Below, in pieces: positions 23,036 to 25,972 of a DNA stretch of 26,167 nucleotides. The notes beneath the pieces were generated by a model. It did not search any database. It saw only the letters and a program-made list of their open reading frames with translations, and was not told the DNA's origin. Within the stretch, counting starts at the first letter, position 1; each line of letters begins with the position of its first letter. The stretch lies in contig JACQNW010000094.1 of NCBI GenBank assembly GCA_016202845.1, forward strand, positions 1 through 26,167. Direction: 5' to 3'. A program made the position numbers and the translations under genes. Origin of the DNA: Candidatus Aenigmatarchaeota archaeon. GTDB taxonomy: Archaea; Aenigmatarchaeota; Aenigmatarchaeia; GW2011-AR5.

Positions 23036-23262
23036 GAGTACCTCCGAAAGTGAAAACATATGGGTTTGCAATACATCCAGGATGGATTTTCATACTTTGG
23101 CTTTATAGCAAGCCAATGAAATAAGTTCTATATAACTTCATTGGTTGCTATACATCATAGATGCTTACACCTATGTGTGTCGGCATAGCCGACATGTGAA
23201 ACAAATAAATTATATCCTGTTTATTTATTTGGTTCATTATAACCCTGCTTTCGGAGGTACTC
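23036..23262. mobile_element. 227-bp MITE-like element with perfect 15-bp terminal inverted repeats
   Basis: GAGTACCTCCGAAAG (23036..23050) and CTTTCGGAGGTACTC (23248..23262). Internal hairpins at 23104..23152 and 23178..23194. No transposase and no clear target-site duplication. Confidence 0.7.
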
Positions 23263-23275
23263 AAATAAGCAATGT

Positions 23276-23505
23276 GCTGAGGTGGCAGAGCTTGGTCAAA
23301 GAGCCCCTTTCTCTTCTGCAGAAAGCAGCGCTTTCTGAGATCTCAGGCGAAGCCTGCAGATGAAAGAGAAGGGGCATGACTTAACGCGCAGGATTGCTAA
23401 AGCCCTTTGTGCATGTAAACGCACAAATCGCTTGCGGAAATAAGTTTCACTAAGCAAATATCCTGTTCCCGCAAGGGAGCGAGAGTTCAAATCTCTCCCT
23501 CAGCG
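23276..23505 (+). tRNA. tRNA-Ser(GCT) with two introns (21/22: 23300..23383; 37/38: 23400..23459)
   Basis: The exons give an 86-nt cloverleaf: GCTGAGG/CCTCAGC acceptor, CAGGA/TCCTG anticodon stem, long variable arm, GAGAG-TTCAAAT-CTCTC T arm and G73. BHB central helices are GGTC/GACT and TTGC/GCAA. Confidence 0.9.
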
Positions 23506-23509
23506 CTAT

Positions 23510-23742
23510 GGGTCGGTGGTCTAGTACCAATCCCTTTCTTAAAAGAAAGGTCTTGGTGAACTCCAAAGAAAAGGAGTTTTAGCATATTAAAAATATGCCA
23601 GAAAATGGCTATGAGTTTCAGTAACTAGCAAACGTTGCCCTTACAAACCGATGTCCTTACGACATCTAGCTAAATGAGGCGAAGGCCGGCGGTTCGAACG
23701 AGTGAAGCAAAAGCTTCTCTTCCGAAATTCCGCCCCGACCCA
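23510..23742 (+). tRNA. tRNA-Val(TAC) with four introns (~16/17: 23526..23604; 23/24: 23614..23631; 37/38: 23646..23676; 59/60: 23699..23728)
   Basis: Five exons (16+9+14+22+14 = 75 nt) form a complete cloverleaf with a GGGTCGG/CCGACCC acceptor. Introns 2 and 4 have clean BHBs; introns 1 and 3 have relaxed BHBs. Confidence 0.88.
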
Positions 23743-23743
23743 C

Positions 23744-23757
23744 TTTTAAGTTTTTTG
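23744..23757 (+). terminator. T-rich archaeal terminator after the Ser-Val tRNA pair
   Basis: TTTTAAGTTTTTTG immediately downstream of the discriminator base. Confidence 0.45.
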
Positions 23758-23772
23758 TAGTCAATTATAGCA

Positions 23773-24126
23773 ATGCCAGACGGAACACAGATTGAAGAAA
23801 AAGCAAAGCAGTTCATGAATGTCAGGACATTGATTTTAACTACAATTCTCTCTGCGTTGGGTTTTGTTCTTGCTTTATTCTGGAATGATGCAATCAAGAC
23901 ATCAATAGAAAGTTTATTGCCTCCAGCCCAGACGGTAACAGCCAAATTCATGGTTGCATGGATGGTTACCGTTATAATAATATTTGTTGTTTACATCATT
24001 GTCCAGCTGAACAAGCTGACAGAAAAGCATATTATTCAGGAGCTGAAGAAAATCCAGAAAGAGGAAGACGAACACATAAAAGAAGTAGTCAAGCAGGAAA
24101 TCAAAGACAAAAAGAAGAAGGGGTAA
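23773..24126 (+). CDS. Small membrane protein (DUF5654-like)
   Basis: ILSALGFVLALFWNDAIK motif, two hydrophobic helices and a charged tail. Confidence 0.7.
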   Translation: MPDGTQIEEKAKQFMNVRTLILTTILSALGFVLALFWNDAIKTSIESLLPPAQTVTAKFMVAWMVTVIIIFVVYIIVQLNKLTEKHIIQELKKIQKEEDEHIKEVVKQEIKDKKKKG

Positions 24127-25781: not shown

Positions 25782-25972
25782 GCTCCAAACAAGTTATCAA
25801 TAATTTGTTGGCAAAGTTCGTCTAGCCCGGTCAGTGAACGGCGATCAAACTTGTTTTTATCGTCTCAACTGTTAGGATTTCGGCCTTTCGATAACCAGAT
25901 TGAAAGATCTGAGAGCTCTTTGCTCGTTGAAGAAGCAAGCCGACGGCACGGGTTCAAATCCCGTACGGAGCA
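25782..25972 (+). tRNA. tRNA-Glu(TTC) with three introns (5/6: 25787..25815; 20b/21: 25834..25873; 37/38: 25891..25937)
   Basis: Exons of 5+18+17+35 = 75 nt, with a perfect GCTCCGT/ACGGAGC acceptor after splicing. BHB central helices are TGCT/GGCA, CGGT/ACTG and CTTT/GAAG, each flanked by 3-nt bulges. Confidence 0.92.

Follow-up and report, generated by a model that had tools for sequence, protein, structure and literature searches.

Does the segment between positions 23510 and 23742 of the DNA analyzed here (the window, a stretch of 26,167 nt) hold a working tRNA gene dispersed over five exons, and where could its introns have come from? Judging from the sequence data, we conclude that this is likely a functional gene for tRNA-Val(UAC), present in single copy and divided by four introns of the protein-spliced BHB type, and we document below its exon layout, splice motifs, orthology, and uniqueness. 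The introns lie in the D loop (~16/17), the D stem (23/24), the anticodon loop (37/38), and the T loop (59/60), and the host is a small-genome, DPANN-like groundwater archaeon, whose assembly (the genome under study, G000) spans 0.95 Mb in 137 contigs, is 77% complete, has a GC content of 40%, and stems from groundwater metagenomes. G001 designates a relative of the same genus and the other G numbers designate related genomes. The parts of the locus are as follows:

23276..23505, plus strand: tRNA-Ser(GCU), upstream of Val, with two intervening sequences, 23302-23385 (D arm) and 23402-23461 (after the anticodon loop)
23510..23525, plus strand: exon 1, with the acceptor 5' strand, U8, the D-stem 5' strand, and the start of the D loop; alternative ends 23524 or 23522
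23526..23604, plus strand: intron 1, in the D loop at ~16/17, 79-81 nt, three hairpins; alternatives 23525-23605 or 23523-23602
23526..23576, plus strand: HP1-HP2 repeat module within intron 1, HP1 having an outer helix ACCAA/TTGGT and an inner helix CCTTTCTT/AAGAAAGG, HP2 being CTCC-loop-GGAG
23605..23613, plus strand: exon 2, 8-9 nt, from G18 G19 to position 23; 23606-23613 according to the orthologue alignment
23614..23631, plus strand: intron 2, at 23/24, 18 nt, strict hBHBh' (GCTA/TAGC)
23632..23645, plus strand: exon 3, positions 24-37, including the anticodon UAC
23646..23676, plus strand: intron 3, at the canonical 37/38, 31 nt, relaxed BHB (CTTA/TAAA, 3 of 4 pairs), with an internal 6-bp hairpin
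23677..23698, plus strand: exon 4, positions 38-59, with the anticodon-stem 3' strand, the variable loop, the T-stem 5' strand, and most of the T loop
23699..23728, plus strand: intron 4, at 59/60 in the T loop, 30 nt, strict BHB (TTCG/CGAA), the outer helix being the T stem
23729..23742, plus strand: exon 5, positions 60-73, with A73; CCA is not encoded and an oligo-T tract follows
Predicted joined-exon junctions (RNA): ...UCUAG(U)/(A)UGGCUAUG/ACGUUG...; ...CUUACA/AGGCG...; ...GUUCGAA/UCCGCC...

The five exon coordinates and the four intron sequences that had been put forward in an earlier note on this DNA proved exact, and the five exons, once joined into 75 nt, are called tRNA-Val(tac) by ARAGORN. 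The joined exons fold into an acceptor stem of 7 bp, an anticodon stem of 5 bp with one G-U, and a T stem of 5 bp, with a TTCGAAT T loop and the discriminator A73. These three stems are intact, as the note had stated for all four, but the D stem has to be corrected to 3 bp plus a U13-U22 mismatch, a mismatch that is common to all orthologues. The anticodon UAC, U33, G18G19, the UUCGAAU T loop, A73, and orthology to the Val(UAC) genes of relatives mark the gene as a member of this family, and its five exons are collinear, on one strand, and within 233 nt, which is not the layout of a split or permuted tRNA gene. The prediction that standard finders would miss it is borne out, as neither ARAGORN (default mode) nor Rfam (gathering threshold) returned anything from the unspliced DNA of the whole window, and Rfam at E<=10 over 23260-23760 returned noise only.

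The same partition into exons and introns was recovered without any splice motif, by a global alignment of 23510-23742 with the intron-less genes of G037, G031, and G018 that used match, mismatch, and gap costs only. In this alignment, the locus falls into five collinear blocks separated by four insertions, of 81, 18, 31, and 30 nt (23525-23605, 23614-23631, 23646-23676, and 23699-23728), the last of which slides by 3 nt where the T loop of the orthologue differs. We also ran a SPLITS-like scan over the whole 0.95 Mb genome, in which an acceptor pair and a T arm serve as the anchor, a cloverleaf is then sought, and jumps are allowed only at BHB-like helices. The scan recovers Val(TAC) de novo with four introns, introns 2-4 being identical to those of the earlier note, and with a score of 34; 26 parses of the genome reach 33 or more, whereas the reversed-genome control does not exceed 29.

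From the perspective of intron history, when the locus and the 3' half of an orthologue were used to search 40 related genomes, Val(TAC) genes came back from 12 of them. Five of these genes are uninterrupted (G037, G031, G029, G018, and G035), five have one D-arm intron (the same-genus G001, G030, G009, G036, and G039), that of G014 has one large D-loop intron, and that of G007 has two introns. The Val(UAC) gene of G001 (L002:1900-2006) differs from the joined exons at 3 of 73 nt (96% identity), and two of the three substitutions lie in stems whose pairing is kept (U28-G42 vs. C-G; G7-C66 vs. G-U). Apart from these substitutions, the G001 gene reads without a break through the junctions of introns 1, 3, and 4, and exon 4 matches it at 100%. 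The joined exons are also close to the intron-less or one-intron Val genes of G037 and G030, and exon 1 aligns with positions 1-15 of intron-less orthologues. Introns 3 and 4 are probably recent gains, because they were detected in none of the 12 Val(TAC) orthologues examined, that of G001 included. Intron 1 is shared between genera, since its start, ACCAATCCCTTT, is common to the Val(TAC) genes of G000, G007, and G014 at the same site; its homologues at that site are found in Val(TAC) of G007 and G014 and in Met(CAT) and Thr(TGT) of G000 itself. As for the widespread D-arm intron of the relatives, it lies 1-3 nt upstream of the intron 2 site and its sequence is unrelated to that of intron 2.

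Several observations on related loci can be set beside this history. In G001 (L002:1382-2006), Ser(GCU) and Val(UAC) are divergent, not tandem, and Val is devoid of D-loop, 37/38, and 59/60 introns, an arrangement that fits a loss of intron 1 accompanied by rearrangement; the comparison of G001 with G000 suggests that intron loss or gain was linked to rearrangement within one genus. T-loop introns at 59/60, of 75-111 nt, occur elsewhere in the lineage, namely in an Arg-like gene (G000, C97:6217-6473), in Gln(CTG) (G027, L004 80-354, minus strand), and in Ser(CGA) (G024, L007 1200-1422). Besides, intron 3 of Val (23646-23676, GATGTCCTTACGACATCTAGCTAAA) resembles the anticodon arm and intron start of tRNA-Ile(UAU) (C131:4259-4405, minus strand; TCTGTCTTATA|CGACATGTAGTTAAAA), a likeness that may point to copying between introns at the canonical position, or between their flanks.

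How well do the intron borders conform to what the splicing endonuclease EndA would recognize? We scored each BHB as (H pairs of 4, h, h'), the intron and the 5' exon each ending with four H nucleotides and two bulge nucleotides, a geometry based on the pairing of position 32 with intron position -3. The BHBs that the earlier note had described for introns 2 and 4 are upheld by scores of 4,4,3 (GCTA/TAGC; bulges TG|A and AA|A) and 4,5,3 (TTCG/CGAA; h being the T stem), respectively, and when random genome positions with equal intron length are considered, the pattern of intron 2 has a chance frequency of 2e-5 and that of intron 4, counting H and h' only, of 1e-3. The relaxed BHB attributed to intron 3 also stands, with 3 of 4 pairs and a score of 3,5,0 (CTTA/TAAA; C32-A mismatch; no adjacent h'), but that attributed to intron 1 does not rise above chance, with a score of 3,1,0 (TCTA/CAGA), a central helix made of TCT/AGA only, and no closing helix h'. 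Indeed, because an H of at least 3, as in introns 1 and 3, arises with a frequency of 0.15 under the same sampling, the motifs of these two introns carry no weight alone. On these scores, introns 2 and 4 are predicted to be textbook, strict EndA substrates, intron 3 a relaxed canonical one, and intron 1 an atypical one. The outer helix of intron 2 had been said to use bases at the intron 1 boundary, and at most one or two of its four pairs involve intron 1 bases; as to the ordered splicing put forward in the note, the motif overlap at exon 2 implies sequential folding and fixes no order.

The borders of intron 1 can be placed only to within 1-3 nt, and all three boundary sets considered lead to an ARAGORN call of Val(tac). 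With 23526-23604 as the intron, the D loop is AGTATGGCTA, of 10 nt; with 23525-23605, the set given by the orthologue alignment, it is AGTGGCTA, which is identical to the D loop of G001, G037, G030, and the Val(GAC) of G000 itself; with 23523-23602, the set that has the best BHB (TGGT/GCCA), it is AAATGGCTA, and G15 is lost. A perfect BHB of this TGGT/GCCA type exists in G014. For Val of G000, we rejected this variant (score 4,0,3), which is not significant over the 81 boundary combinations and removes G15. The orthologues favor a predicted exon 2 of 8 nt, TGGCTATG, together with an 8-nt D loop, over the 9-nt exon of the earlier note, which is nonetheless compatible, as are its intron ends, with a Val(tac) call. 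The homologous D-loop intron of Met(CAT) in G000 has the layout of the 23526-23604 set (H being the D-stem 5' strand plus A; bulges GT|A and AA|G) and possesses a 7-bp closing helix, which intron 1 of Val lacks. In the latter, hairpin 1 begins directly after the 5' bulge and hairpin 3 stops directly before H', and therefore each bulge still lies between two helices. We infer that intron 1 may form a junction-type relaxed BHB, in which the closing helix would be replaced by two separate hairpins.

The origin of intron 1 can be approached through its first 51 nt, the HP1-HP2 module, which corresponds to an element of ~55 nt present in ~17 copies in G000 and in up to 17 copies in relatives. The D-loop introns of the Val, Met, and Thr tRNA genes account for three of the copies in G000, and 13 lie directly against the ATG of protein genes, in the opposite orientation; as read by eye from N-terminal sequences, these protein genes include rpL2, rpS19, rpS3Ae, rpL3, a gene for a KaiC-like ATPase, and genes whose products resemble RNase PH or an RNA polymerase subunit. 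The copies in G000 include C57:12616-12671, C57:11593-11650, C57:15212-15268, C77:6277-6335, C14:2822-2879, C67:2668-2723, and C8:8956-9015, among others. The outer helix of HP1 covaries (ACCAA/TTGGT, ACAAA/TTTGT, and GTAAA/TTTAC), and HP1-HP2 has no match in Rfam; it could be a promoter/leader cassette, a protein-binding palindrome, or a mobile element. A scenario that we consider doubtful is that intron 1 descends from a highly conserved, community-abundant two-hairpin cassette located before the starts of ribosomal-protein, RNA-polymerase, and exosome genes, which would have inserted itself at AG(U)|A sites into the D loops of Val, Met, and Thr here and, in relatives, into those of Gln and Val(CAC). 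If this were true, the entry of the cassette would offer a concrete route for the arrival of BHB introns in tRNA genes, and a short alpha4-type EndA would be able to handle a junction-type BHB that has no closing helix. As a side observation, rpL2 and rpS19 stand ~350 nt apart at C57:11207-12619 with HP1-HP2 in between, an unusually long spacing for a ribosomal-protein cluster in a streamlined genome.

A second tRNA-Val(TAC), which according to the earlier note would, together with a lack of spliced junction reads, have spoken against its reading, was not found in the 0.95 Mb of this 77%-complete assembly. The other valine tRNA genes of G000 are interrupted as well: the one for Val(GAC), on C91, contains two introns, and the one for Val(CAC), on C128, contains one. 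GTA occurs at 16.5 per 1000 codons and accounts for 25% of valine codons in 529 long ORFs. The second "Val(tac)" that ARAGORN (-i200) reported on C131 turned out, once re-parsed, to be an Ile(UAU) gene containing two introns. Introns are present in all but one of the ~24 other tRNA genes of G000 that we parsed, the exception being Cys(GCA) on C136; they number one to three per gene, in most cases with one placed in the D arm and another at 37/38 or close to it, and Val(UAC) holds the most. Since so many other tRNA genes are interrupted, the splicing machinery is presumably active in G000. The ligase RtcB is encoded at C53:531-1775 (538 bits to PF01139); its best matches do not exceed 76% and are scattered among MAGs of Nanoarchaeota, Micrarchaeota, Aenigmatarchaeota, and even Thermoproteota. 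PF01974 and tblastn searches with the EndA of relatives found no EndA in G000 or in the same-genus G001, both 77% complete. A weak match on C87 was discarded as an unrelated ORF of 189 aa that is DUF655-like when read by eye. As a matter of fact, 23 of 26 relatives have one EndA gene, of ~190-240 aa, and this single short form suggests an enzyme of the alpha4 type.

Could the gene nonetheless be a dead one? On this account, the HP1-HP2 insertion in the D loop would not be excisable, the locus would be a decaying pseudogene, and Val(UAC) would be supplied by an unassembled copy, as might be argued from the chance-level BHB of intron 1, from the occurrence of the module outside tRNA genes, and from the incompleteness of a genome recovered at only 77%. 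We deem this quite unlikely, given that the exons are intact and, at 96% identity to the same-genus orthologue, retain stem pairing with compensatory changes, that intron 1 has kept counterparts at this position in Met(CAT) and Thr(TGT) of G000 as well as in intact Val(TAC) genes from two other genera, that the 0.95 Mb contain no other Val(UAC) that could be found, and that two further perfect-BHB introns would not persist in a dead gene. It is unlikely, too, that the layout is something other than four simple introns, with a composite intron 1 (an older intron in which a repeat is nested, or a pair of adjoining introns removed stepwise) that would entail at least five cleavage events or other ends for exons 1 and 2. 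The strict scan detected no inner BHB inside intron 1 and no orthologue of intermediate form was recovered, even if three boundary sets are equally tRNA-compatible, a 7-bp closing helix is present in the Met and Thr homologues and missing from Val, and the closing segment of the G007 homologue, AATTGGTT, stands ~35 nt ahead of the end of that intron, a hint of added material.

The repeat also raises the question of whether the assembly could be a chimera, in which exon 1, together with tRNA-Ser, and exons 2-5 would come from different loci or strains joined via the 50-nt repeat. Logan contigs of all four runs do break within the repeat (23527-23578), where the summed depth reaches 100-300x that of the flanks, and no contig bridging the intron 1 repeat was present among them, nor was an intron-less joint seen. 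The evidence for connecting the two sides of intron 1 comes from the original assembly and from the complementarity of these sides. This complementarity is however perfect over the 7 bp of the acceptor and extends to a matching D stem, and exon 1 is of the Val type. Moreover, contigs from three samples match 23207-23556 and 23527-23850 with zero differences, their overlapping ends agreeing, and the independently assembled G007 and G014 display the same architecture across intron 1, with a Ser-Val tandem and a repeat-bearing D-loop intron within one gene, which supports the join. A chimera thus appears extremely improbable.

Returning to the reading that we prefer, that of a functional four-intron gene, a dicistronic Ser-Val precursor is likely, because tRNA-Ser(GCU) ends 4 nt before Val, the Ser-Val tandem is conserved with a 2-3 nt spacer in G007, G014, and G009, a TTATAA at ~23238-23243 precedes Ser by 33-38 nt, and Val is followed by an oligo-T run. 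For this gene, we infer from sequence features the following course of transcription, cleavage, ligation, and order of events. Val would be co-transcribed with the tRNA-Ser(GCU) located 4 nt upstream, from the TATA-like box at ~23238, and the ends of the precursor would be cut by RNase P and RNase Z. EndA would cut within the 3-nt bulges of each BHB, the central helix of intron 1 being formed by the D-stem 5' strand paired with a purine run at the intron 3' end, RtcB would ligate the five exons into a tRNA of 73-75 nt, and CCA would be added afterwards.

With regard to the region upstream of Val, ARAGORN calls the neighboring gene "Gly(ccc)", a call that we rejected, as orthologue alignment identifies it as Ser(GCU) with two introns. 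Parts of these Ser(GCU) introns (~23315-23346 and 23399-23447) are repeated in related genomes. Directly upstream of tRNA-Ser and overlapping the putative TATA box, the segment 23198-23245 has a depth of ~1000 versus ~12 in metagenome contigs, which fits the MITE-like element that the earlier note had flagged there.

How does this gene compare with known intron-rich systems? According to reviews, the maximum is three introns per tRNA gene, in Thermoproteales. In that group, multi-intron tRNA genes reportedly have up to three introns each and introns are said to transpose between tRNA genes. As in Thermoproteales, we find noncanonical positions, relaxed BHBs, and related intron families across tRNA genes; unlike here, their enzyme is said to be a heterotetrameric (alpha-beta)2 endonuclease with a Crenarchaea-specific loop.

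A closer parallel is provided by Asgard archaea, where tRNA genes with four introns (Arg-TCT, Ile2-CAT, Leu-GAG, and Trp-CCA) have already been recorded from Freyarchaeia and Atabeyarchaeia (PMC11291895, Suppl. Data 4). The claim that Val(UAC) would match or exceed the known maximum fails for this reason, and the gene is a new example of a four-intron archaeal tRNA, not a record. Focal Asgard families have 2.0-2.4 intervening sequences per gene, and their tRNA intron gains were repeated and lineage-specific (bioRxiv 10.64898/2026.10.13.758758). As in Freyarchaeia and Atabeyarchaeia, nearly every tRNA gene of G000 is interrupted, with many D-arm introns at BHBs that standard tools miss, and its intron burden is near that of the most intron-rich Asgard families, yet it resides in a DPANN-like genome of ~1 Mb versus 3-5 Mb in Asgard, and the relatives of the host carry a single short alpha4-like EndA versus the alpha-beta type of TACK/Asgard. 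Furthermore, the repeat in one of the Val introns also exists at non-tRNA loci; the Asgard preprint, by contrast, found no mobile-element route and left the way in which BHB introns enter tRNA genes as an open question (bioRxiv 10.64898/2026.10.13.758758). Many noncanonical and multiple introns are likewise a feature of lineages with a DPANN alpha4 EndA bearing an L3 loop or with the ARMAN-2 epsilon2 EndA, but these reports give no per-gene count of four, and the EndA type considered here is deduced from relatives (PMC5829648, PMC3239211). The alpha4 EndA of DPANN with an extra loop has been linked to heavy tRNA disruption, in lineages where tRNA sets are incompletely predicted (PMC5829648).

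In this regard, the Val(UAC) locus offers a clean comparative series of zero, one, two, and four introns across related genomes, in which two introns of the gene were not found in the same-genus relative and one is built on a repeat that also exists outside tRNA genes. The locus also illustrates the under-calling of DPANN tRNA sets: in G000, the Rfam tRNA model finds 6 tRNA genes, ARAGORN in long-intron mode 15, several with wrong anticodons, and the BHB scan ~26. Farther along the window, alignment to intron-less orthologues gives tRNA-Glu(UUC) (25782-25972) three intervening sequences, at 25787-25815 (acceptor stem, 5/6), 25834-25873 (D loop), and 25891-25937.
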